From NCBI GenBank assembly GCA_040261075.1, contig JBDQOS010000080.1:1-25117 (forward strand): DNA of 25,117 bases. The letters are read 5' to 3'. The first letter of the stretch is position 1; each line of letters starts with the position of its first letter. The DNA comes from Flavobacteriales bacterium. Its GTDB lineage: Bacteria > Bacteroidota > Bacteroidia > Flavobacteriales_D > Sanyastnellaceae. The translations under genes were made by a program, and so were the position numbers. This document shows positions 1,127 through 16,351 of the stretch, one piece after another. Below the pieces are notes generated by a model. It saw only the letters and a program-made list of their open reading frames with translations. It searched no databases and was not told where the DNA came from.

Positions 1127-1228
1127 ACCCGCGCATACAACGCACCGCACGGATGTGAACAAAACGCGACAATCTTCGTACATGAAAGTTGAGTGGAAAC
1201 ATTTGCGTTCCGTTTGTACCTTGCCCCC

Positions 1229-2275
1229 ATGCAAATCAACTTGCTCAAATCATGGATGCTCGCTGGCGCTCTTGCGGTGCTCGCTTCGCCTCAACACGCT
1301 GAGGCCCAATACGCCTTGGACTACGGGTTTGCATTTGGGACGGGGAATTACCTCGGTGACATCGGAGGAGACGAGTTGACCCGGCGCGATTTCGCTGCGG
1401 ATTTGCACTACGGCCAAACCAAATTCTCAAGCCACGTCTTCGTGCGCTACCGATTGAGTCCCACGTTTGCCGTTCGCGGTCAGCTGGGCACAGTGTATTT
1501 GGAGGACTACGACAACCTGTCGACGAATCCGGCGCGGCGCACGCGCAACGCGCACTTCCGGAATTACGTGAATGAACTTAGTCTGCGCGGCGAAGTCAAC
1601 CTCTTTAGCCTCCCCATGATCACGCGGTACACGAGCAAGTTGCGCATCGGGTTCAATTCCTACGCCACGCTCGGTGTGACAGGAATTGTACACAACCCCG
1701 AAGCCCAACTGGACCGAAACGCGGCAGACTACCTCTACGAGACAGGGCAAATCACGCTGAACCCCAACCAACTCGACTACGACGAGTGGCACAACCTGCG
1801 GGAATTTGGCACAGAAAAGGTGACCTACGGAAGCGCAGCGTTGGGCTTCCCCTTGGGTGTCGGGGTGTCGTTCATTGTGAACTACCAATTCCGAGTCGGA
1901 ATGGAATTCGTTTGGAACCTCACGCTCACCGATTACCTCGACGACGTGAGCTACACGTATGCGGATCCAACCTCGTTGAGCGACATCGGACGCATCCTGA
2001 GCAGTCCCTCGAGCCTTGTGGTGGCAGAAGCTGCTGGGGTAGAAGACGCGGTCGGCTATCTCGACAGTTTTCGATGGGACGAGGCCTACGAAAGCCCCCG
2101 CGGCAACCCGGACAAGAACGACACCTACGGAACATTGCAGTTGACGGTGAGCAAGGTGGTGATGGGCTCGAGCAACTTCCGTAAGAACAACTTCTACAAC
2201 AAGCGTCGCACCGTGAAAAAGCGTCCCAGCAAGCCTGGCAGCAGCCGGATGGGACGAGGACGCGCGAAGTTCTGA
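1229..2275 (+). CDS. Outer-membrane beta-barrel protein, DUF6089-like
   Basis: Signal peptide ([27 protein letters not shown]), [11 protein letters not shown] start, TDYLDDVS and [10 protein letters not shown] motifs, alternating beta-strand pattern and C-terminal Phe. ATG 1229 is preferred over the track start at 1193. Confidence 0.7.
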
Positions 2276-2390: not shown

Positions 2391-4520
2391 GTGGCTACCA
2401 ACGCGCTTTCTCGGTCGACTTCTCCCTACCTCCTTCAACACCAACACAACCCCGTGGATTGGGTGCCGTGGGCGGACGAAGCGTGGGCGCGTGCAAACAA
2501 GGAAGGCAAGCTCGTGATTGTCAGCGTGGGTTACAGTGCGTGTCACTGGTGCCACGTGATGGAGCGCGAAACGTTTGAGGACGCAGAAGCGGCGGAGTTC
2601 ATGAATGCGCATTTCGTCTGCATCAAAGTCGACCGCGAAGAGCGCCCCGACGTCGATCACGTCTACATGGACGCCGTGCAGTTGATGACGAAGCGGGGCG
2701 GATGGCCGTTGAATTGTGTGGCGATGCCCGACGGGAGGCCCGTTTGGGGAGGGACGTATTTTCCTCGCCTGAAGTGGCTGTCGTCGTTGGAAGCGGTGTT
2801 GGAGGTTTGGCGTGAGGAGCCGGCCAAAGTCGAGGCGTATGCTGCGCAACTCGCCTCGGCGGTGGCGGCGCTGGACGAAACTGAAGGAGGCGCGCTGCCG
2901 GACGATGAACTCGTCCGTGAGAGTGGAACAGAAGGAGAAACAGAACGGGCTGCACTCAGACAGCGGGTTGACACGAGGGTGATGGAAGGGTTGGAAAGTT
3001 GGAGCCGGGGGTGGGACCCTGTTTTTGGCGGGCGTTCGGGGGCACCCAAGTTTCCCCTCCCCTGCCAAATCGATTTCTTGCTTCGAACCGGGGAATCGAC
3101 GGCCTTGGGAGAGCGTTGGATGGACCACGCGAGAGCGCATGCGCTGCGGACGCTGCAGGCAATTGAACGAGGGGGCATTCACGACCACGTGGGTGGCGGG
3201 TTTGCGAGGTACAGCGTGGACGATAGATGGCACGTGCCCCACTTCGAGAAAATGCTCTACGACAACGGTCAGTTGCTGGGGACGCTTGCGGAAGCCTGGG
3301 CCGTCGAGCCGCATCCCTCGATTGAGAAGGCGGTGGAGGGCATCGTTGGGTTTTTGGATCGAGAGTTGTCGGACGCCAGCGGCGGCTTTCGATCGGCCTT
3401 GGACGCGGACAGCGACGGCGCGGAGGGAACGTACTACGTCTGGACCGAAGCCGACTTGATCGCAGCCTTGGGTTCAGGTGACCAGGCCGAGGAAGTGATG
3501 CGGGTGTTTGACTTCGGGGGGCGAAGTCACTGGGAAGAAGGGAAAAACGTGTTGATGCGGCAAGCTGCCAGCGAGGCGTTGTGGAGGGATGCAAGGTTGA
3601 GGGGGCGCTTGGAGGACGCGTTGCAACGCATGTCGGGGTGGCGCGACAGCGCGGCGAGCGGTCGATCAAAACCGGGGGTGGACGACAAGGTGTTGACCGC
3701 CTGGACTGCCGTGGCGGTTTCGGGGCTCGCGCGGGCGGGCAAGATCCTCGGACGGGAGGATTGGGTGGCTCGAGCCGAACGAGGAGCCGTGTTTTTGCGG
3801 AACGTAGCGCGCGTGCCGGGCGAGCCGGAGTTGCTGCGTCGGACGTGGCATGCCAAGGGAGGGCCTGAGACGGAGGGGTTTGCCGAGGATTATGCGTTGG
3901 CTGTGGAGGCGATGCTGGATGTGCATCAGGCGACGGGCGAGCCGGCGTGGCGGGACGAGGCCCGGTCGTTGATGGCCACGGCGCTCGACCGATTCTACGA
4001 CGATTCGGCAGGGACGTTTTGGTTTTCGGCACGTGAGGCCGAGGCGCTTTTTGCACGGAAACAGAGCAACGACGACAGCGTCTTGCCCTCCGCAAACGCC
4101 ACCTTCGCCGCGTCGCTGTGGCGCCTCGGATGGGCCTGCGACATTCCTTCTTGGCGCAGCCTGGCGCGCGACTTGGTTGCGAGGCATCTGCTCGGCTCTC
4201 AGCACCTCGAACGATCCGCGAAGTGGGCGCAGGTTTGGCTGGACCTTCGGGGGCCATTTGCAACTGTGGTTGTGGCCGCACCAAGCCAGGAGCTCGGCAG
4301 GAAGGCCCTTCAAGAATGGAACCTTGGCGCCACGAAAAGAGGAACGTGGATTGATGTGATCACACCCGACTCAACCCACATTCCTGCGTGGATGGAAAGC
4401 AAGCGCCCCTCCGCAGAGGCACCTGTGAGGTGGTATGTTTGTGAGGAAGGTGCGTGCGGGCTGCCGTGCGCCAGCGCCCAAGAAGCATGGAAGCAATTTC
4501 ACCCGGAAGAAAAGCCTTGA
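2391..4520 (+). CDS. YyaL/DUF255 (SSP411/SPATA20-like) thioredoxin-domain plus (alpha/alpha)6 protein
   Basis: [83 protein letters not shown] and ALDADS motifs. Confidence 0.92.
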
Positions 4521-4966
4521 TGCCTTCGCCATCACTCCTGTCAAAGCACCTTGCATGCGGCATTACTCGCCTCACATTGTTGGCGATGCTTGGAGCCGTT
4601 TGGGTGGCCGAATCTGGGAAGGTTTGGGGGCAGTTCGACAGCAAATCGCGAAGCGAACGAAAGGCAGAAGAACGGGAACTGAAGGAAAGGGCCAAGGCTG
4701 AGAAAAAGGCCATGAAGGAGTTTGAAAAGAACTACAAAGAGCTTCAGGAACGGCATTACAAGTTTCAGCAAACGGGACGAGAGAAAAACCTCGTCGTCCC
4801 AGACGGACAAGACAAGAGCACGACCCGAAAGCGCAAAAGTCACAAGAAGGACAACGTCAAAAAGCGGATGCGAAAAGGGCAACAAAAAGCGCGCAGGCAC
4901 CGAGACGGAAGGACCGTTTCGTGGTGGCGCCGGCTTTGGGTGAGGCGTTCCTGGAAAAAACACTGA
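4520..4966 (+). CDS. Hypothetical exported, highly charged/basic protein (148 aa)
   Basis: ATG overlaps the upstream stop (TGATG at 4518-4522). Hydrophobic N-terminal segment, then a Lys/Glu helical region and an Arg/Lys-rich tail ending WWRRLW. Confidence 0.7.
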   Translation: MPSPSLLSKHLACGITRLTLLAMLGAVWVAESGKVWGQFDSKSRSERKAEERELKERAKAEKKAMKEFEKNYKELQERHYKFQQTGREKNLVVPDGQDKSTTRKRKSHKKDNVKKRMRKGQQKARRHRDGRTVSWWRRLWVRRSWKKH

Positions 4967-5064
4967 ATTCGGGGCACAGCGTCAGAGCCATTCGCGGAGG
5001 AAATCGCTCATTCCCCTGGTTTGCAACGTGTTTGCACATTTTAGCGTTCTGAGTGGGGTTGACT

Positions 5065-5072
5065 TATATTTG
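5065..5072 (+). promoter_or_regulatory. -7 promoter element (TATATTTG) for the TBDR-cargo-PorV operon
   Basis: Exact TAnnTTTG match ending 36 nt upstream of ATG 5109, which argues against the track start at 5028. Confidence 0.65.
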
Positions 5073-5108
5073 GCCCCTATACCTGTATTGCCTGAAAATT
5101 CTAGACGC

Positions 5109-8100
5109 ATGATGCGGTTTGCAACGATTTTGGGGGCGATTCTGATGAGCTTCAGCGCGGTTGCGCAAGTGGGCCAAGGAACGCTCAAGGGACGTGTCAC
5201 GGACTTCGATTCGAAAGATGCACTCCCCTTTGCCAGTGTGGTTCTTTTCCTCAACGGAAACCAAGTGGCAGGTACCAACACCGACTTTGATGGAGAATAC
5301 ACCATCAAACCCATTCAGCCGGGCACGTACGACGTGCTCTTCAGCTTTGTGGGCTACCAGTCCAAAAAAGTGACTGGCGTCAAGATCACCGCCAACAAAA
5401 TCCAGTTCGTGAATTCCGAGCTCGGAGCGGGCGTGATGATGGAAGAAGCCGAGGTCGTGGAGTACTCTGTGCCGTTGATTGACAAGGACGGGGGCGCCTC
5501 GGGCGGCACGGTAAGCCGCGAAGACATCGACAAACTCCCCGGTCGTTCCGCAAGCAGCATCGCCCAAACCGTGGCAGGTGCCAGCACCGCCGGCACGGGA
5601 GGAGGCGTGAGCATCCGCGGTGCACGTTCCTCTTCAACTTGGTACTACATCGACGGAATCAAGGTCCGTGGCTCAGCTGCTCTTCCCAAGTCGGCCATCG
5701 AAGAAGTCCAGGTCGTAACGGGCGGGATTCCCGCCAACATCGGGGACGCGACAGGGGGTGTGATCAACATCTCGCTTCGAAACTCGAGCCGAACGTGGTT
5801 TGGCGGCGGGGAAGTCATCACCTCCGGAATCCCTATCGGAGAAACCGCCGTGGGTCTGGACAAGTTTGGCTACAACCTTGCGGAAGGTTCCCTATCTGGT
5901 CCGATTGCTTGGCAAAAGGACGAGAACGGTGAGAAAACCGACCCGCTTCTCGGCCTCTTCCTCTCAGGAAACTACACGTATCAAATGGACACGCGCCCCA
6001 CATTTGGAGGCGTGTACCGCATGACCGACAGCGCACGTGCGGAGATTCTCGCCACGCCGCTACGCCAAAACATCAGCTCTTCCGGCGAAATCAACGGCGC
6101 ACTCTTCAACGCCGACTTCCTGGAGCCCGGTGATTTCACCAGGGTGGACACGCGCCTCAACGCGTCCAACCAGTCGGCCAACTTGGTGGCCAAGGTGGAC
6201 GTAGCGACAAACGAAACCACGAGCCTCACATTGGGTGCGACGGGTGCGTTTGGGCGCAACAACGAATTCGACCGCGGACGCTCCCTCATGAACTGGGAAA
6301 ACAACAACCAAACGACCAGCCTCGACTGGCGTGGGTACGTCAAGTTCTCGCAGCGTTTTGTGGACGAAGAGGGAGAGCAAAGCAGCGGTGGGCTGAAGAA
6401 CGTCTTCTACTCGATCATGGCCGACTACTCCCAGAGCTACTTCAAGCGGGAAGATGCTTCTCACGGGGACGATTTCTTCAAGTACGGCCACGTTGGGAAG
6501 TTTGACATCTTCCAACAAAACAGCTACGGCTACAACCCCACAACGGGCCGCTACGTCCACAACGGATGGCAAGACACGTTGGTGACCTTTGAGGCCTCGC
6601 CGTTCAACCCTGAATTGGCGGCCATCAACACGCAGTACTTCTCGCTGTTTGACAACAACCCTTCTGTCTCCTTTGGACCAGGCAACTCGGTCATCTTTGA
6701 GCCCGGACCGTATTCCAGCCTTCTGGAGGTGCAGAACGGCAACGCGCTTCTCAACGGTCAAAGCCCCTCAAGCACGTACGGGTTGTGGAGTTACGTTGGC
6801 GCTCAAGGAAACAGCTACAGCATCAGCAACAACAGCCAGTTCCGCGTGAGTGCAGCCGGTTCAGGAGACATCGGAGACCACGCGTTGCAGATGGGCTTCG
6901 AATACGAGCAACGCCGAGACGCGTTTTTCTCATTGAGCCCCATTGGCCTCTGGACGTTGGCGCGCTTGACGACCAACTCGCACATCAAGGAAATCGATTC
7001 GTCGGACAGCACGGTGACCAACGTGGGAACGGATTACTACGTGACCTACGAGCGCCTTGTTGGCGACAACCAATTTGAGTTCGACTACAACTTGCGTCAA
7101 GCGTTGGGCGCCGGCGAGCGCGAATTGATCAACATCGACGCCATCGACCCTGAATTCTTCAACATGGACATGTTTGGGGCGGACGACCTCCTGAACCAAG
7201 GCAGCAACTACGTCAACTACGGCGGATACGACCCCTACGGGAACAAGGTGGCAGGTCGTCCCACGATTGAGGACTTCTTCAACGACACCCGCACTTTGGG
7301 TGGCCGGGAGTTCAACACCCGTCCCATCGGAGCGTACGAGCCCATTTACATCGCGGGATACGTGATGGACAAATTCACGTTCGACGACATCATCTTCAAC
7401 GTGGGGGTTCGCGTCGACCGTTTCGACGCCAACCAACCTGTTCTCAAGGATCCTTACGTGGTGGGCCAGTCCTACAGCGTAGGAGACATTCGGGGCGAAT
7501 TGATCAACACACTCAGCGGCACGACAGTCATTCCTGAAAACATCGGAGAAGATTTCGTGGTGTACACCGACGCGTTGGAAGACCCGAGCTCCATTGTCGG
7601 ATTCCGCGACGGCGACACGTGGTACAACGCCCAAGGCACGGAGATTTCCGACCCCGACATCCTGGCCGTCAACACTGCCTACCCCGCTCCTTGGCTGAAG
7701 CCCAACGACAACGCCACCGGCGACGACCCGTTTGAGTTGACGTCGGAAGCGTTCCGCGACTACGACCCGGCGGTGAACATCATGCCCCGCATCTCCTTCT
7801 CGTTCAACATCAGCGACGAGGCGGTCTTCTTTGCGCACTACGACATATTGACCCAGCGTCCTACCTCGAACATTCGCTTCTCCCCCATTGACTACCTCTT
7901 CCTCGAGAGCCGAAACAACCTCATCTCGAATCCCGACTTGCGTCCGGAAAAGACGATTGACTACGAGCTGGGCTTCCAACAGGTGTTGACCAAAACGTCA
8001 AGCCTGAAGATCTCCGCGTACTACAAGGAGATGCGTGACATGATTCAGGTCCGGAACTTCACCGGAGCGTACCCACGCCCCTACAAGGCATTTGGCAACC

Positions 8101-8840
8101 TTGACTTTGGCACGGTGAAAGGCTTCACGGTGGGCTACGACCTCCGCCGCACAGGCAACGTTCGCTTGAACGCGAACTACACGTTGCAATTCGCAGACGG
8201 AACAGGTTCAACCACGCAAACGGCATTGGCGTTGATCAACGCCGGTCTCCCCAACCTCCGCTCGATCAACCCGTTCAACTACGACCAGCGTCACCGCATT
8301 GTGGCCAACGTCGACTACCGTTACGGTTCTGGCGAGGACTACAACGGCCCGGTGGCCAACCTCGGAGGCAAAGAGGTGCAGTTGTTAGCCAACACGGGCT
8401 TGAACTTCATCGCCAACCTCGGATCTGGAACGCCCTACACGGCCTCCACCATCGCCACGCCGATCACCGGGGAAATCAGCCCGTCCACGGAAGGTTCCAT
8501 CAACGGAAGCCGCCTGCCATGGCAGTTCAATTTGGACGCCAACTTCGACAAGAACTTCACATTGACGTATGGAGGGGAAGGCGACGCAGCAAAAACCACC
8601 AACCTCAACGTGTACCTCTGGGTGGGCAACGTGTTGAACACGCGCAACATCAATTCGGTGTACCGCTTCACAGGTGTGTCGGACGACGACGGCTACTTGG
8701 CCGCCGCCCAATACCAGCCCCTCATCAACAGCCAAAACGACCCGGACGCGTTCCGCAACTACTACAGCATGTTTGTAGACAACCCCTTCAACCTGGGATT
8801 GCCTCGGACCGTGCGTTTGGGTGTCAAGTTTGACTTCTGA
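5109..8840 (+). CDS. TonB-dependent receptor-like outer-membrane protein with N-terminal carboxypeptidase-regulatory-like domain (1243 aa)
   Basis: Signal peptide ending AVA-Q; GTLKGRVTD...TDFDGEYTI...GTYDVLFSFVGY domain; plug motif SIRGAR...YYIDGIKV...AIEEVQVVTGGIPA..GDATGGVINI; NPDLRPEKTIDYELG; C-terminal PRTVRLGVKFDF. Confidence 0.9.
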   Translation: MMRFATILGAILMSFSAVAQVGQGTLKGRVTDFDSKDALPFASVVLFLNGNQVAGTNTDFDGEYTIKPIQPGTYDVLFSFVGYQSKKVTGVKITANKIQFVNSELGAGVMMEEAEVVEYSVPLIDKDGGASGGTVSREDIDKLPGRSASSIAQTVAGASTAGTGGGVSIRGARSSSTWYYIDGIKVRGSAALPKSAIEEVQVVTGGIPANIGDATGGVINISLRNSSRTWFGGGEVITSGIPIGETAVGLDKFGYNLAEGSLSGPIAWQKDENGEKTDPLLGLFLSGNYTYQMDTRPTFGGVYRMTDSARAEILATPLRQNISSSGEINGALFNADFLEPGDFTRVDTRLNASNQSANLVAKVDVATNETTSLTLGATGAFGRNNEFDRGRSLMNWENNNQTTSLDWRGYVKFSQRFVDEEGEQSSGGLKNVFYSIMADYSQSYFKREDASHGDDFFKYGHVGKFDIFQQNSYGYNPTTGRYVHNGWQDTLVTFEASPFNPELAAINTQYFSLFDNNPSVSFGPGNSVIFEPGPYSSLLEVQNGNALLNGQSPSSTYGLWSYVGAQGNSYSISNNSQFRVSAAGSGDIGDHALQMGFEYEQRRDAFFSLSPIGLWTLARLTTNSHIKEIDSSDSTVTNVGTDYYVTYERLVGDNQFEFDYNLRQALGAGERELINIDAIDPEFFNMDMFGADDLLNQGSNYVNYGGYDPYGNKVAGRPTIEDFFNDTRTLGGREFNTRPIGAYEPIYIAGYVMDKFTFDDIIFNVGVRVDRFDANQPVLKDPYVVGQSYSVGDIRGELINTLSGTTVIPENIGEDFVVYTDALEDPSSIVGFRDGDTWYNAQGTEISDPDILAVNTAYPAPWLKPNDNATGDDPFELTSEAFRDYDPAVNIMPRISFSFNISDEAVFFAHYDILTQRPTSNIRFSPIDYLFLESRNNLISNPDLRPEKTIDYELGFQQVLTKTSSLKISAYYKEMRDMIQVRNFTGAYPRPYKAFGNLDFGTVKGFTVGYDLRRTGNVRLNANYTLQFADGTGSTTQTALALINAGLPNLRSINPFNYDQRHRIVANVDYRYGSGEDYNGPVANLGGKEVQLLANTGLNFIANLGSGTPYTASTIATPITGEISPSTEGSINGSRLPWQFNLDANFDKNFTLTYGGEGDAAKTTNLNVYLWVGNVLNTRNINSVYRFTGVSDDDGYLAAAQYQPLINSQNDPDAFRNYYSMFVDNPFNLGLPRTVRLGVKFDF

Positions 8841-8842
8841 TC

Positions 8843-11800
8843 ATGCCAAGCAAGCAGATGAACCGCATACTCTCTTTCTCCGCCCTCTTTTTGGTCGCCT
8901 CCACCGCGTGGGGGTACAAATACGTGGGAGCCGGCACGCCCGGTGAAACCGCAGGAAGCAACAACCAGCCGGCCCTTCGTGCCGCAGCCTGTGCTCCAGC
9001 CACCGGACTCCGCGACCTCGAATGGAACAACGTTCGCGCCCTGATTGAAACGGGTGGTTCGTTGTGGCAAGACCGCGCCACGAGCCAAGCGTCTTACGAA
9101 GTACCCAAGGGTGGCGGTATCAGCTCGCTGTACGCCGGGGCGCTTTGGATGGGTGGCATCAGCCCCGACCAACAGTTGAAGCTTGCCGCTTTGACGTTCC
9201 GCAACCGAGGGAACGACTACTGGACGGGTCCCTTGACCAACGACGGCTCTGCGGAAATTGACGCGGAAGTGTGCGACGTGTACGACGAGTTCTTCGTGTC
9301 GACCCGAGCCGACGCCCAGCGTCACCGCCAGTATTTCGACGCGATTGCCAACGGTACGGTGGACGAGGAATTCCCGGAAGGCTACGCCATTCCTGGCTAC
9401 TTCCGGGACTACCCTGCTCACGGCAACACGGAAGCCTACCAAGATTACTACCTCGCGCCGTTTAAAGATTACGACGGAGACGGGTTCTACTCGCCCGACA
9501 ACGGAGACTACCCTTGGTACGACTTTCTGCAAGAAATTGATTGCAAAAACCGGAAGCGCGAGGACATCGTGCCTCTGTACGGCGACCGCAACTTCTACTG
9601 GATTTTCAATGACAAGGGCAACGTCCACTCGGAATCGCAGGGGGAGCCGATTGGCATGGAGATTCGTGCGCAAGCCTTCGCGTTCTCCACCAACGACGAG
9701 GTCAACAACATGACCTTCCACAACTACGTCTTGATCAACCAAGGAACCCAAACCCTCGCCAACACCTACTTTGGTGTGTGGGTCGACGCGGACGTGGGAA
9801 CGGCGACAGACGACTACGTGGGATGCGACGTGCAGCGTGGTTTGGGCTACAGCTACAACGGCGACGCGGTGGACGAGCCTTCTTCGAGCTCGCAGGGCTA
9901 CGGCGAAAATCCTCCTGCGGTCGGCATCGACTTCTTCGAAGGTCCTTACCAAGATTCGGACAGCATCGACAACCCGTTGACCACAAACTTCTCGAACGCG
10001 ATCGACTCGCTTGGCATCCCCTACGACGGCATCGGCATCGGGTACGGCGACGGCGTGGTGGACAACGAGCGTTTCGGAATGCGCCGTTTCGTGTACTACA
10101 ACAACTCCGGAAACCAAATCAACGGCGAACCCGTGACCCCGCTTCACTTCTACAACTACATGAACGGGATTTGGAAAAACGGTCAAAAGATGGCTTACGG
10201 CGGCGACGGCGTGAGTGCTGCGACCGGCGCCAACCTCGACATCGAGTGCGACTACATGTTCCCCGGGGACACCGACCCGTTCAACTGGGGCACTGGAGGT
10301 ACCAGCGTCGATCCGTGGACGGAGGTGACTTCAGGCAACCCACCTGCCGACCGCCGATTCATTCAAGCTGCCGGGCCCTTTATCCTTGAGCCAGGCGACT
10401 ACAACAACATCACGATGGGTGTGGTCTGGGCACGTGCTACCGCAGGTGATCCCGAGGAAAGCGTGAAGTTGATGCGCATTGCGGACGACAAGGCGCAGGC
10501 GCTCTTTGACAACTGCTTTGAGATCGTCTCCGGTCCCGATGCCCCCGACGTGACCGTGCAGGAGCTCGAGAACGAACTCATTCTTTACCTGACCAACGAC
10601 AACCCGCTCTCGAACAACTACCAGGAAGATTACCTGCAATTCGACCCCGGGATTCCCAAGTTTGACATCAACGGAAACCAGTACGACAGCTTGAGCCGTT
10701 CGTACACGTTCGAGGGGTACCAAATTTACCAACTCGCCAACAGCGAAGTCTCGCCTGCCGATTTGGGAGACATTGACCAAGCTCGGTTGATCTTCCAATG
10801 CGACGTGACCAACGACATCGACGTGGTGGTCAATTACGTCCAGGACACGGAGATGGGTTTGCCGGTGCCTACGCTGATGGCCAACGGAGAAAACGAAGGG
10901 GTTCAGCACAGCTTCCGCGTGACCAAGGACGCGTTCGCACAAGGCGACAACGCCCTTGTGAACCACAAGACGTACTACTTCATGGCGATGGCCTACGGGT
11001 ACAACAACTACGAAGAGTACGACCCCATCACCGGTTCGGGACAAGACGTGCAGTACAAAGCCTCTCGGAAGGCGGCTGTGGGCTCGATTCGGGTGTACAG
11101 CGGCTCGCCTCACAAGCCTACGACCGAGTCGGGCGGCTTGGTTCAATCGGCGGCGTACGGAGACGGGGTGACAATCACGCGCCTCGAAGGCATGGGCAAC
11201 GGCTTGAACGACGTGGCCTTGACGGCCGAGAGCGAAGCGGACTTGGTGGCCAGCGACAACGGCAAGCTCGCCGAAGTGACCTACCAAGGCGGCTTGGGCC
11301 CTGTGGCGGTGCGCGTGGTGGATCCGCTTTCGGTTCCCGAAGCGGAATTTGAACTTCGCGTCTTGGGCGAGGCGGGCAGCCTCAGCAGCGGCGAAGACGT
11401 GGAATGGGTGCTCACCAACCTGACGATGCTCGACACGGCAGTGACGGCGAGCGACTCGGCCAAGGCCATCGTGACCAGCGACCGCACCATCAACGTGCTC
11501 AACGAACAGCTCGTGCTGGAGTGGGGCTTGGGCATCACCGTGCACCAACAGGTGTACCCGTCGAGCGCCGACATCGCCACGCCGCTTGGCGCTTCCATCA
11601 CCTTCGAGAACCCACAGGAGCCCTGGCTCTTGGGCTTGCCGGACGGCGAGGGCTTCACCGAAGACAACTGGATTCGTGCGGGCACGCAAGCCGGCGACGA
11701 CACGTCGCCGTTTGAGCTTGCCTACAACGACCTGATGGACGAAGACGAGGTGTACGAGGGCTTCCTCGGCGGCACCTGGGCTCCCTACTGCGTGGTGTCG

Positions 11801-12982
11801 TACACCGAGGCCGACGTCGAAGACCCGGCCACCGGCTTCACCTACGAGTTCACGCCGTTGTTTGCGCCAACGCGCGGCGACCTCATCCGCCTGCAGCAGT
11901 GGAACACGCCTGAGTCGACCAGCAGCGTCGACGTGGTGTTCACCAACGACCGCAGCAAGTGGACGCGTTGCCCTGTGCTGGAAATGCAGCCCAACGACGT
12001 CTTGGCCCAAAACGCCACCGGCGCTCCCGGCTCTTTGGAGAAGATGAACTTGCGCCGCCACAAGTCGGTCGACAAGTTTGGGGTCACCGCCGAAGACGGA
12101 GGCAACGCTGCCGACGCCAACCTCACCAGCAACGTGGGCATGGGGTGGTTCCCCGGCTACGCCATTGACCTCACCACCGGAGAGCGCCTCAACATGGCCT
12201 TCGGGGAAGACTCGTGGCTGAGCGCCGACAACGGCAAGGACATGATTTGGAACCCGTCGCCGAGCTACCAATACGCCGGCGGACAGCACTGGATCTACGT
12301 CTTTAAGAACGGCCAAGCCGCCTCCGGAACGGAGAACCGCATGCCGGCCTACGACAAGGGTGCCTTCCTCATGGAAAACCTCACCGACCCGAGCATCTCC
12401 ACCGAGCGTCGCGCCTTCCGCGACTGCGCGTGGGTGGGCTCGGCCTTGAGCAACGCCGACTTCCCGATGCTTTCCATCGAAGAGGGACTCATCCCCAACG
12501 AAACGCGCGTGAGCTTGCGTGTGGCACGCCCCTACGACAAGTACAGCAACGTCGTCATCGACACCGACAACGTCGACAACGCCAAAAACAACTGGGATCC
12601 GCTCTACCGCTTCTCCACGGCCGACGTGGCGACGCGCACCGAGCAAGTCACCGTGTTGGAGGAAATGCTTGCCGAAATCAACGTCGTGCCCAACCCGTAC
12701 TACGCCTACAGCCAGTACGAGACCAACAAGCTCGACAACCGCGTCAAAATCGTCAACCTCCCCGAGGTCTGCACGGTGCGCATCTACAACCTCGCAGGCA
12801 CCCTCATCCGGACCTACGACAAGGCGGACCCGCTCACCTACGTGGACTGGGACCTCAAGAACGAAGCCAACGTGCCCATCGCCGGAGGCGTCTACATCAT
12901 CCACATCGACGTGCCAGGCGTCGGTCAGGCCGTGCGAAAGTGGTTCGGCGTGATGCGACCCATCGATTTGGACAACTTCTGA
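8843..12982 (+). CDS. Large secreted protein with T9SS-like/FlgD-Ig-like C-terminal sorting domain (1379 aa)
   Basis: Signal peptide; LEWNNVRALI..GG.LW...YEVPKGGG...LYAGALWMGG N-terminal block; DYDGDG Ca-binding-like loop; FN3-like segment (PDAPDV...FEGYQIY...YYFMAMAY); C-terminal NVVPNPY...NLPEVCTVRIYNLAGTLIRT...WDLKN...IAGGVYIIHI. Confidence 0.8.
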   Translation: MPSKQMNRILSFSALFLVASTAWGYKYVGAGTPGETAGSNNQPALRAAACAPATGLRDLEWNNVRALIETGGSLWQDRATSQASYEVPKGGGISSLYAGALWMGGISPDQQLKLAALTFRNRGNDYWTGPLTNDGSAEIDAEVCDVYDEFFVSTRADAQRHRQYFDAIANGTVDEEFPEGYAIPGYFRDYPAHGNTEAYQDYYLAPFKDYDGDGFYSPDNGDYPWYDFLQEIDCKNRKREDIVPLYGDRNFYWIFNDKGNVHSESQGEPIGMEIRAQAFAFSTNDEVNNMTFHNYVLINQGTQTLANTYFGVWVDADVGTATDDYVGCDVQRGLGYSYNGDAVDEPSSSSQGYGENPPAVGIDFFEGPYQDSDSIDNPLTTNFSNAIDSLGIPYDGIGIGYGDGVVDNERFGMRRFVYYNNSGNQINGEPVTPLHFYNYMNGIWKNGQKMAYGGDGVSAATGANLDIECDYMFPGDTDPFNWGTGGTSVDPWTEVTSGNPPADRRFIQAAGPFILEPGDYNNITMGVVWARATAGDPEESVKLMRIADDKAQALFDNCFEIVSGPDAPDVTVQELENELILYLTNDNPLSNNYQEDYLQFDPGIPKFDINGNQYDSLSRSYTFEGYQIYQLANSEVSPADLGDIDQARLIFQCDVTNDIDVVVNYVQDTEMGLPVPTLMANGENEGVQHSFRVTKDAFAQGDNALVNHKTYYFMAMAYGYNNYEEYDPITGSGQDVQYKASRKAAVGSIRVYSGSPHKPTTESGGLVQSAAYGDGVTITRLEGMGNGLNDVALTAESEADLVASDNGKLAEVTYQGGLGPVAVRVVDPLSVPEAEFELRVLGEAGSLSSGEDVEWVLTNLTMLDTAVTASDSAKAIVTSDRTINVLNEQLVLEWGLGITVHQQVYPSSADIATPLGASITFENPQEPWLLGLPDGEGFTEDNWIRAGTQAGDDTSPFELAYNDLMDEDEVYEGFLGGTWAPYCVVSYTEADVEDPATGFTYEFTPLFAPTRGDLIRLQQWNTPESTSSVDVVFTNDRSKWTRCPVLEMQPNDVLAQNATGAPGSLEKMNLRRHKSVDKFGVTAEDGGNAADANLTSNVGMGWFPGYAIDLTTGERLNMAFGEDSWLSADNGKDMIWNPSPSYQYAGGQHWIYVFKNGQAASGTENRMPAYDKGAFLMENLTDPSISTERRAFRDCAWVGSALSNADFPMLSIEEGLIPNETRVSLRVARPYDKYSNVVIDTDNVDNAKNNWDPLYRFSTADVATRTEQVTVLEEMLAEINVVPNPYYAYSQYETNKLDNRVKIVNLPEVCTVRIYNLAGTLIRTYDKADPLTYVDWDLKNEANVPIAGGVYIIHIDVPGVGQAVRKWFGVMRPIDLDNF

Positions 12983-12995
12983 TCTGCAACCTCTC

Positions 12996-14033
12996 ATGAA
13001 GAAGCATACATCTCTCCTCCTCGCGGCCTGTGTCGCCCTCGGAACTGCATTTGCCGGAAACCCGGACCGCGCAGGATCTGCCGGTGCCGCACAACTGCTC
13101 ATCAACCCCTGGGCGGCTTCCAACGGCTTGGCAGGAACCAACATGGCGTCCGTGACCGGACTTGAAAGCACGTTCAGCAACGTCGCGGGTTTGGCCTTTG
13201 TGCAACGCAACGAATTGGCCTTCGCCAACAGCATGTACTTGGGTGGAACCGGCATTGCGCTGAATTCCCTCGGATTCGCCACGAAAGTGGGCGATTCTGG
13301 CGTGCTCGGCTTGAGCGTCACGAGCATGAATTTTGGGGACATCCCCATCACAACCGAAGACTTGCCTGAGGGCGGGATTGGCTCGTTCTCTCCCTCGTTC
13401 AGCAACATTGGAGTGACCTACTCCAAAGAATTCTCCAACTCCATCTACGGTGGCATCACGCTTCGCATCATTGGCGAAAGCATCAGCAACGTGCGTGCAA
13501 GCGGCGTGTGCTTTGACGCGGGAATTCGCTACATCACAGGGGAGGATGACCGGTTGAAGTTTGGCATTGCGTTGCGCAACGTGGGTGCACCCATGCGCTA
13601 CGCAGGCGACGGTTTGACGGTCACCGCGACGCCACAAGGTGCGGACGGTTCATTGACCGTTTTCCAGCGTTCTGAGAAGTACGAATTGCCTTCGCTCGTC
13701 AACATTGGGGTCGCTGTGGACGTGGTTTCCAACGACAACACGGTGGTGACGGCCACGGGGCAATTTGTGTCCAACAGCTTCACCAAAGACCAAATCGGCG
13801 GGGGTGTGGAAGCGACTTTGGGCGACCGCTTGGTCCTTCGCGGTGGGTACATGTGGGAGCAGGGGTTGATTGACGGCGGACAAGACGTCGCGACAGCCTA
13901 CACGGGTCCTGCTGCCGGGGTCGGGTTGAACCTGCCCGCCGGTGAAGGAGCCACCATGAAACTCGATTACAGCTACCGAACAACCAACCCGTTCAACGGA
14001 ACCCATACGCTCGGGCTGAAAATTTCGTTGTAA
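12996..14033 (+). CDS. PorV/PorQ-family (FadL-like) outer-membrane barrel
   Basis: Signal peptide ending AFA-G; AGAAQLLINPWAASNGLAG resembles the PorV N-terminal hatch motif; FSNVAGLAF resembles the FadL-type NPAGL motif; amphipathic strands through to THTLGLKISL. Confidence 0.8.
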   Translation: MKKHTSLLLAACVALGTAFAGNPDRAGSAGAAQLLINPWAASNGLAGTNMASVTGLESTFSNVAGLAFVQRNELAFANSMYLGGTGIALNSLGFATKVGDSGVLGLSVTSMNFGDIPITTEDLPEGGIGSFSPSFSNIGVTYSKEFSNSIYGGITLRIIGESISNVRASGVCFDAGIRYITGEDDRLKFGIALRNVGAPMRYAGDGLTVTATPQGADGSLTVFQRSEKYELPSLVNIGVAVDVVSNDNTVVTATGQFVSNSFTKDQIGGGVEATLGDRLVLRGGYMWEQGLIDGGQDVATAYTGPAAGVGLNLPAGEGATMKLDYSYRTTNPFNGTHTLGLKISL

Positions 14034-14070
14034 GCGGAGACGCGCGAAAAATTTGCTATTTTGCATGAAC

Positions 14071-14107
14071 GAGAGGGCCACGCGCCCTCTTGTTTGTGTT
14101 TCCTTTT
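14071..14107 (+). terminator. Putative terminator or attenuator hairpin in the greA leader
   Basis: GAGAGGGC-CACGC-GCCCTCTT stem (8 bp including one G-U) followed by the interrupted U-rich tail GTTTGTGTTTCCTTTT. Confidence 0.5.
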
Positions 14108-14163
14108 ACGGGAACGAAGCGCCGAAGAGGCGCACACCTGAACTTTCTTTTTGATCTGACATC

Positions 14164-15049: not shown

Positions 15050-16351
15050 TCAGTCCAAATCAAGCAGCGCGGTCCAAACACTCAGCACCCCGGAGTCCTC
15101 GCGGGTCCAGATGGGACGGACTCGGCCGTCCACTGCTGAAATGTTGTTGTAGTCCCCGAAGAACACTTTTCCTTCAGGGGTGAAAGGCAGTTCCGAGACG
15201 GTTCGGTTGATCCACGTGGTTCCTCCGTCGGTGCTCGAGGCCACCACCACGTGCGTGGACACGTCTTCGCGATTGGGGTTGTGACGGCGGTCGTAAAACA
15301 CAACGTGCACGTCGCCACGCACGGGATCGACGGTCATCCAGGTGAAGAATTGATCTCGGTCCGCGCCGTCGTTGTTGACCCGCTGGGTGGTCGACCACGT
15401 CTCTCCCGCGTCGTCAGACCACGTGATCCACACGTCGTTGTCGCCGTTTCGCGAATCGGTCCAGTTGACGTAGATGCGTCCACGGTGCGGGCCGTTGCTA
15501 GTGTCGACGCAGGTCACAGGCATCCCGTTCACGCGTCCAATGCCCGCGATGCTTTGGTCCCACCCGCCCACGATGTCCGCCACGATGCGGTCTTCGCCCC
15601 AGGTCAAGCCTCCGTCCAAGCTCTTGTCAAAGTAAATCCAAGGCCCGAGCGCCCAAGCCACGAAAATCTCCCCGTTCACGCCGACCGCCGGAACCGCCCC
15701 CTCGGTCGTGTCGTCGCCGTCGAGGCAATCTCCCGCCTTGTCGCTCACGCGGACCGGATCAGACCACTTCTTGCCTTTCGCGTTCGCGTGACTGCACAGA
15801 ATCGTGGTGCTGTCGCCCGGCTCCTTGCTCCCGTAGGCGTCAAATTGGGTCCAACACGCGTGGATTTGGCTGCCGTCGGCGTTGACCGCCGCCCATTCCT
15901 TGTCTTGATCCTTGGGCGGCGTGTGCCCCATGCCTCCGCCTTTGGACCACGTCTCGCCCCCGTCCTTGGACCGTTGGCACACAATGCGGTCAAGCAGCGC
16001 TTCGCTTCGCCACCCCTGCCCTTCCGGGTCGCTTAAGTGAAGGTAGTAGAAGTCCCCGGTCGGGCTGGCCACCACACACGGGTCGCCAAACACCCCCAAC
16101 GGCGACTTCAGCGTCCCCTTGGTCCACGTCTCCCCTCCGTCTTCGGAACGGTACACGTTGTCCAAAATGCTTCCCGCCACCACCACGTCCGCGTTGGTGG
16201 GGTCGATGGCGATGCTGGGCTCGCAGGGTTGGTATCCCTTGCCGTCCCAAACATCGAGACGGACGTTGACTGGCGACTGCCCCAAGGCAGCCGCAGCGAG
16301 GCCCACAACCGCCCCAACGGACAAGGCGCTGCGGAGGATCATCCGTGCCAT
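15050..16351 (-). CDS. Secreted BNR/Asp-box beta-propeller (sialidase-fold) protein, activity unassigned
   Basis: Signal peptide and five Asp-box repeats: RSEDGGETW, RSKDGGETW, KSLDGGLTW, WSDDAGETW, SSTDGGTTW. Confidence 0.8.
   Translation of the reverse strand: MARMILRSALSVGAVVGLAAAALGQSPVNVRLDVWDGKGYQPCEPSIAIDPTNADVVVAGSILDNVYRSEDGGETWTKGTLKSPLGVFGDPCVVASPTGDFYYLHLSDPEGQGWRSEALLDRIVCQRSKDGGETWSKGGGMGHTPPKDQDKEWAAVNADGSQIHACWTQFDAYGSKEPGDSTTILCSHANAKGKKWSDPVRVSDKAGDCLDGDDTTEGAVPAVGVNGEIFVAWALGPWIYFDKSLDGGLTWGEDRIVADIVGGWDQSIAGIGRVNGMPVTCVDTSNGPHRGRIYVNWTDSRNGDNDVWITWSDDAGETWSTTQRVNNDGADRDQFFTWMTVDPVRGDVHVVFYDRRHNPNREDVSTHVVVASSTDGGTTWINRTVSELPFTPEGKVFFGDYNNISAVDGRVRPIWTREDSGVLSVWTALLDLD

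Follow-up and report, generated by a model that had tools for sequence, protein, structure and literature searches.

A conserved gene triplet of a TonB-dependent transporter, a giant type IX secretion cargo and a PorV-family barrel in Bacteroidota and sister phyla

Among the proteins exported by the T9SS (type IX secretion system), PorZ and PorU of Porphyromonas gingivalis are two that keep their C-terminal domain (CTD) uncleaved and bound to an outer-membrane barrel, PorQ in the case of PorZ and PorV in the case of PorU (PMC10202324). PorV is also the established shuttle for type-A cargo (PMC10202324, PMC9143113), and a second kind of T9SS cargo is anchored on the cell surface by a cargo-specific FadL-like barrel of the PorP/SprF family encoded beside it, as in the SprB-SprF and PG1035-PorP pairs (PMC9143113). 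The SusC/SusD (RagA/RagB) operons of Bacteroidota pair a TonB-dependent transporter (TBDT) that bears a CarboxypepD_reg extension with a surface-exposed partner, whose gene comes directly after that of the transporter. Here we analyse a three-gene locus that shares features with each of these. It lies on the forward strand of a 25,117-nucleotide contig of a Flavobacteriales bacterium (GenBank assembly GCA_040261075.1, contig JBDQOS010000080.1; hereafter the window), which is contig C25 of a 1.72-Mb metagenome-assembled genome (306 contigs, 68% complete) whose proteins have their closest named relatives in Crocinitomicaceae and other Flavobacteriales metagenome-assembled genomes. The genes encode a 1243-residue TBDT (5109..8840), a 1379-residue secreted protein with a T9SS CTD, which we call BIG (8843..12982), and a 345-residue 14-strand-type barrel of the PorV/PorQ family, which we call PorVL (12996..14033). 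The nearest known systems are PorZ-PorQ and PorU-PorV for anchoring and SusC/SusD for the layout of transporter and partner. Our preferred interpretation, which we hold with only slightly better than even confidence, is that BIG would be retained at the surface by an uncleaved CTD bound to PorVL and would act there with the TBDT.

The likeness to PorZ and PorU lies in the CTD. This domain occupies residues ~1270-1379 of BIG (12650..12982, forward strand) and is a variant T9SS CTD with a family-specific C-terminal extension ending in Phe. It has the β-sandwich fold of type-A CTDs and matches those of PorZ, PorU, RemZ, RemA, NucA and RgpB. The best structural match is PorZ (5m11; Z 10.4, Foldseek E 1e-5, 24% identity) and the second is PorU (6za2; Z 8.3), with the cargo CTDs of SprA complexes ranking after both. 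In sequence, the last ~90 residues of BIG match the C-terminal part of a PorZ model (E 1.8e-5), and BIG gave no match to the standard CTD sequence models TIGR04183 and PF18962. When five genomes were searched with a profile of the BIG CTD, scores of 148-202 bits fell on BIG paralogues only and the next best match reached 31.6 bits; the same genomes hold between 41 (in the window's own, incomplete genome) and at least 150 ordinary type-A CTDs. Judged by these profile scores, the BIG CTD is a distinct subtype, private to the BIG family in the five genomes searched. It is also the most conserved segment of the protein: the mean p-distance is 0.44 here and 0.58 over the remainder of BIG, a difference that suits a lasting contact better than a signal that is later discarded. 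With its type-A-like fold and VPNPY motif, the domain differs from the type-B CTDs served by PorP/SprF adaptors.

The resemblance does not extend beyond the CTD, and BIG shares nothing else with PorZ or PorU. The PorZ architecture described by NF052228 is two β-propellers followed by a CTD. We considered whether BIG might itself be PorZ and rejected this, as only residues 1269-1354 match NF052228 (23 bits against a cut-off of 260) and a separate PorZ-like gene is present on contig C298.

PorVL belongs to the same barrel family as PorV and PorQ, rather than to the PorP/SprF family. It scores 140.3 bits against the PorV/PorQ family model NF033709 (cut-off 90), and the profile of its family matches PorV of F. 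johnsoniae (6h3i_F) with E 7.5e-17. It is not a canonical PorV, given a score of 45 bits against an equivalog cut-off of 250, and it is likewise neither PorQ (NF033711; 76 bits against 220) nor PorV2 (NF052325; 32 bits against 325), for which genuine members in related genomes score 310-521 bits and fall in other clades. Five complete relatives carry three to six PorV-family barrels apiece, and in a maximum-likelihood tree these form PorQ, PorV2, PorV and triplet-linked groups, labelled independently by NCBIfam. The triplet-linked group numbers 20 barrels, including one from another class, and all share a single branch with support of 100/99. PorVL is therefore part of a fourth clade of the family, separate from PorV, PorQ and PorV2, for which NCBIfam holds no equivalog model. 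Separately, we observed that the PorV2 clade (NF052325, 405-521 bits) represents a further PorV-family barrel in the genomes of relatives (G363, G207 and G107).

Core T9SS genes are encoded elsewhere in the genome. The porU and porV genes form a pair on contig C78, where PorV scores 446 bits; C81 carries a PorQ-like gene, SprA maps to C147 and C20, and the PorZ-like gene was mentioned above. An earlier note on this DNA, made from the sequence without database searches, had treated PorVL as a paralogue and not the genome's only canonical PorV, and the porU-porV pair bears this out. The predicted complex of the BIG CTD with PorVL gave an ipSAE of 0.89 in three runs, the best of three controls giving 0.00, and the predicted interface includes the family-specific C-terminal extension. 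Of 80 solved complexes 58 attained the mark, as did 2 of 110 mismatched pairs; with the custom alignments used here, these counts apply only roughly. The same note had proposed that a private PorV-like barrel recognises the variant CTD. The separate clade, the confinement of the CTD subtype to BIG and the binding predicted above controls are in line with that proposal; the specificity it implied is not shown by the complex score.

These observations can also be read as describing a shuttle only. PorVL would then collect BIG at SprA, the variant CTD fitting the housekeeping PorV poorly, PorU would cleave the CTD, BIG would be released or linked to lipopolysaccharide as ordinary type-A cargo is, and the linkage to the TBDT would reflect shared regulation only. 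PorV is known to shuttle type-A cargo (PMC10202324, PMC9143113), the predicted interface resembles the PorV-CTD complexes of translocon structures, and PorU is encoded in the genome. Nevertheless, the CTD is the best-conserved part of BIG and is structurally nearest to the retained CTDs of PorZ and PorU, and a shuttle leaves unexplained why BIG alone has kept a private barrel across several phyla. We regard this explanation as unlikely.

We hypothesise the following mechanism for surface retention of BIG. BIG would use Sec to cross the inner membrane and, directed by its CTD, the SprA translocon to cross the outer one. The CTD would be neither cleaved nor linked to lipopolysaccharide; it would stay on BIG and bind PorVL, so holding BIG on the cell surface in the manner in which PorQ holds PorZ and PorV holds PorU. 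Surface BIG would then work with the TBDT, most probably as the part that captures or processes a substrate for import by the TBDT, and would take the role filled elsewhere by SusD-type lipoproteins. Retention of the CTD, the contact between BIG and the TBDT, the direction of transport and the substrate are points that we infer. If this interpretation is right, retention of a CTD by a cognate barrel would extend from PorZ and PorU to a large and widespread cargo family, and the T9SS would be tied to TonB-dependent transport. The triplet differs from PorZ-PorQ and PorU-PorV in that the cargo and barrel are encoded with a TBDT, and in that no link to attachment by anionic lipopolysaccharide (A-LPS) is evident. 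Many environmental Bacteroidota and members of sister phyla carry the module, and it is transcribed in salt-marsh communities. It could serve as a test case for how certain T9SS cargo avoid cleavage of their CTD and for how SusD-less TBDTs gain surface partners.

A search of 401 genomes sampled from the phylum gave BIG matches in 167, with many weaker matches confined to part of the protein. All 167 BIG-positive genomes belong to the SprA-positive set of this sample, and its 89 SprA-negative genomes are all BIG-negative. More than 6500 BIG homologues are present in the protein collection. The earlier note had mentioned similar triplets across the Fibrobacterota-Chlorobiota-Bacteroidota (FCB) group, and surveys of gene neighbourhoods uphold this: the order TBDT-BIG-PorVL is kept in 17 of 20 regions from the phylum sample (seven of them from other classes), and the full triplet in 47 of 63 evaluable near loci, thirteen of the 63 being orphan BIG paralogues, and in 47 of 51 evaluable distant loci, among them Rhodothermales, Ignavibacteria, Gemmatimonadota, Calditrichia, Zixibacteria and Eisenbacteria. 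Some relatives have the variant order TBDT-BIG-PorVL-BIG2. We found no description of the triplet in the literature, most subscription journals lying outside the coverage of the search. A stronger form of the model, in which the PorV-family barrel, the giant T9SS-delivered surface enzyme or receptor and the TBDT form one stable complex, an ancient FCB-wide tripartite machine, is possible, and we put it forward tentatively as less probable than its opposite. Were it true, it would represent a second, SusD-independent solution to surface capture and TonB-driven import, and the first case of the T9SS building part of a transporter.

Additional copies of BIG occur outside the triplet. The window's own genome holds a second BIG with 78% identity and the same CTD subtype, split over two contig ends (C177, locus L036:2-2788, minus strand; C211:3355-3627), which adjoins a UvrD/PD-(D/E)XK helicase gene and has no TBDT next to it. 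The large open reading frame (ORF) upstream of such orphan copies was considered as another transporter and set aside, as it encodes this unrelated helicase. On contig PACT01000037.1 of Crocinitomicaceae NAT165 we observed a TBDT-BIG pair lacking the barrel and, about 40 kb away, helicase-BIG2-PorVL, an arrangement that suggests that one barrel serves both BIG copies.

The first gene of the triplet has the architecture of a TBDT, with a putative signal peptide, a CarboxypepD_reg domain (54 bits), a TonB-box-like motif, a Plug domain (PF07715; 37.5 bits, above the cut-off of 23.9) and a putative barrel that is large and divergent. The barrel region gave partial matches to NCBIfam TonB-receptor barrel models, and the protein itself has no match to PF00593, the model for the 22-strand barrel. 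Across 40 members of its family, CarboxypepD_reg was found in 40, Plug in 39 and PF00593 in 11 (best E 1.3e-26). Against known structures, the family profile matches the plugs of CirA (E 1e-14), PirA and PfeA. The motif E-V-V-x-Y-x-V-P-L-I-D-K-D, between the N-terminal extension and the plug, is conserved across the family and is named a TonB box from its position and likeness; the genome holds two TonB C-terminal domains above cut-off. As in SusC/SusD systems, the transporter carries a CarboxypepD_reg extension and lies directly upstream of a partner that would be surface-exposed. We considered placing it in the SusC/RagA subfamily and rejected this, as no SusC model appears among its NCBIfam matches, the next gene is BIG, and no SusD/RagB gene is adjacent or elsewhere in the window. 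The partner also differs from SusD in being a 150-kDa T9SS cargo with its own barrel instead of a SusD-like lipoprotein, its contact with the TBDT being putative, and the triplet has none of the carbohydrate-active enzyme (CAZyme) or regulator context of Sus loci.

A TBDT of this size could in principle work outward or serve as an assembly factor that helps to export, fold or insert BIG or PorVL, which was the second of two options raised by the earlier note. The precedent is Oar of Myxococcus xanthus, a TBDT that shares the CarboxypepD_reg extension, TonB box, plug and barrel and is functionally linked to a large secreted protein, being needed for secretion of the protease PopC (PMC6434023). 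The barrel model PF25183 is matched by 2 of the 40 family members, which may be counted in favour of this option. However, the Myxococcus system has neither a T9SS nor a PorV-like barrel, whereas BIG itself bears a T9SS signal and SprA was present in all BIG-positive genomes searched, so that an export route already exists. Moreover, SusC-type importers share the same architecture, and orphan BIG copies have no adjacent TBDT. We consider an exporting TBDT very unlikely, and analogy with PorZ-PorQ and PorU-PorV favours the first option of that note, in which BIG may act as a non-SusD lid or receptor feeding the TBDT.

We also examined the part of BIG that precedes the CTD. Neither BIG nor a set of 32 diverse relatives matched a Pfam family, save for Ig-like domains inserted in a few of the relatives, and a search of the PDB with the BIG family profile returned nothing useful. 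AlphaFold2 models were of high confidence, with a predicted local distance difference test (pLDDT) score of 91 for residues 40-765 and 88 for residues 750-1379. Residues ~50-562 (8990..10528, forward strand) were modelled as a galactose-mutarotase-like β-supersandwich carrying about 250 residues of insertions. Its best alignments with VIA-align are to 9ju0 (Z 18.7 over 255 aligned residues, root-mean-square deviation 3.3), 5nz7 (Z 17.8) and 1ulv (Z 17.6), and it aligns with aldose epimerases at a Z of about 12. The β-supersandwich is known from the N-domains of GH15, GH65, GH94 and GH116 enzymes as well as from aldose epimerases. This fold is a hint of carbohydrate binding, as a shared fold shows no function, and a sugar substrate is likewise hinted at by the modelled supersandwich only. 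Beyond the supersandwich, the CTD and unnamed T9SS proteins, Foldseek and VIA-align searches of the PDB, AlphaFold database clusters and the ESM Atlas gave no further match, and residues about 760-1255 gave no fold match in these searches, which the CTD dominated; we claim no new fold. The supersandwich region includes a run of acidic residues (D248, D257, E273, D315, D317, D323, D324, D344 and D363) that is invariant or nearly so across phyla.

A third explanation takes BIG and PorVL as an envelope structure or enzyme that is independent of the TBDT, acting for example in a surface coat, adhesion or the turnover of an envelope polymer, the clustering arising from shared outer-membrane assembly. 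The invariant acidic cluster and the strong conservation of BIG would suit such a role, as would the retention of the module in a small genome, the housekeeping context in the window and in 60 related loci, and the orphan BIG paralogues that sit away from any TBDT. Set against this, a TBDT lies directly upstream in the 47 of 51 distant and 47 of 63 near evaluable loci, across phyla and with gaps down to 2 nt. Further, distance matrices computed over 64 triplets for four parts (TBDT, BIG passenger, CTD and PorVL) correlate at r = 0.86-0.96, and the tightest correlation is that between the TBDT and the BIG passenger (r = 0.96). On balance we think an envelope role of this kind improbable.

Several points weigh against the retention of BIG by PorVL and its action with the TBDT. 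The matrix correlations are expected for any linked genes and show inheritance as a unit, not contact; partial correlations were computed as well and give no evidence of contact, since linked genes and longer proteins correlate anyway. The orphan paralogues carry the same CTD and are away from any TBDT, and presumably BIG can act without a dedicated transporter adjacent. The high complex score may echo PorV-CTD complexes that have already been solved (8gl6, 8gl8, 8glk), and the predicted complex is a likeness to solved PorV-CTD pairs and not a preference for PorVL over the housekeeping PorV. BIG is unusually well conserved for a substrate-binding lid. Finally, the neighbouring genes are housekeeping genes and not CAZymes or regulators. 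There is no pointer to a substrate, and the nutrient role is an assumption.

The layout of the locus is consistent with expression as a unit. The three forward-strand ORFs span 5028/5109-8840, 8843-12982 and 12996-14033, with the gaps of 2 and 13 nt that the earlier note had given, and the N-termini of all three proteins are signal-peptide-like by inspection. A candidate Bacteroidota-type -7 promoter box, TAtaTTTG (5066..5073, forward strand), was found by eye 36 nt before the ATG at 5109, while a sigma-70 promoter scan returned nothing at 5066-5073. A terminator-like hairpin of 16 pairs with a T-rich tail (14063..14099, forward strand) follows 30 nt past the stop codon of the third gene. Of the sequence words sampled from the stretch, 39-45% were found in six metatranscriptome runs from salt marsh. 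Four of the six were aligned to the window, and their contigs, 95-99% identical to it, span 5092-14014 and with it all three genes, leaving 4300-4973 uncovered. In three runs a contig starts at 5092-5109. The junction of the first and second genes is crossed by contigs of runs X15 (record 4) and X18 (record 28), and that of the second and third by contigs of runs X15 (record 8) and X17 (record 23). This pattern plausibly fits one operon starting just after the -7-like box, bearing in mind that contigs cannot prove a single transcript. The single promoter and three signal peptides of the earlier note are thus plausible as regards the promoter, from the box, hairpin and RNA contigs, and rest on inspection as regards the signal peptides.

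Upstream of the triplet, a possible accessory gene of 148 residues (4520..4966, forward strand) starts with a signal peptide or transmembrane segment, after which the sequence is rich in Lys and Arg. A profile built from 18 small upstream ORFs gives it 30.3 bits, compared with at most 1.8 bits for 200 shuffles. Members of this small-ORF family are about 90-116 residues long, share the motif H..IQDK.TRKRMKK...W.KRWF and occur in at least 18 related loci, at a distance of 150-370 nt upstream of the TBDT. The 148-residue ORF is probably outside the triplet transcript, because no RNA contigs cover 4520-4966. On the other side of the triplet, in the spacer before greA, one base of the window (position 14148) is absent in all four aligned RNA runs, which is probably strain variation.

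Most other genes in the window are housekeeping genes, including glyA, greA, hemB, thyA, purK and ddl and those for a DsbH-like thioredoxin and a HIT protein. The earlier note had reported no SusD, CAZyme, sensor or other T9SS gene nearby. We similarly found no SusD, sensor or clear CAZyme in the window; the statement on T9SS genes and CAZymes needs two small qualifications, as the ORF 2.8 kb upstream of the triplet (1193-2275, forward strand) encodes a DUF6089 protein that matches the PorG model below threshold (75.5 bits, cut-off 130), and the minus strand encodes a BNR-repeat protein (15050-16351). The flank surveys covered 13 loci at class and phylum level and 47 distant ones. CAZyme-type matches across these amounted to one GH115 fragment, with no CAZyme family among the 25 commonest in either survey, and a reading of this branch of the family as a sugar-utilisation locus resembling a polysaccharide utilisation locus (PUL) is not supported in flanks that lack CAZyme context. 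The common neighbours were instead of housekeeping type, namely serA-like dehydrogenases and TPR/cytochrome-c3-like, GWxTD and DUF4397 proteins. Ten loci of the Rhodothermales type have an ORF of about 700-750 residues after PorVL on the same strand; in that flank survey TPR and cytochrome-c3-like domains were found in 11-12 ORFs and GWxTD in 11, these counts not being mapped to particular ORFs. The commonest neighbour of the triplet was a serA-like D-2-hydroxyacid (3-phosphoglycerate) dehydrogenase, seen in 7 of the 13 and 10 of the 47 loci, from Bacteroidia to Rhodothermales.

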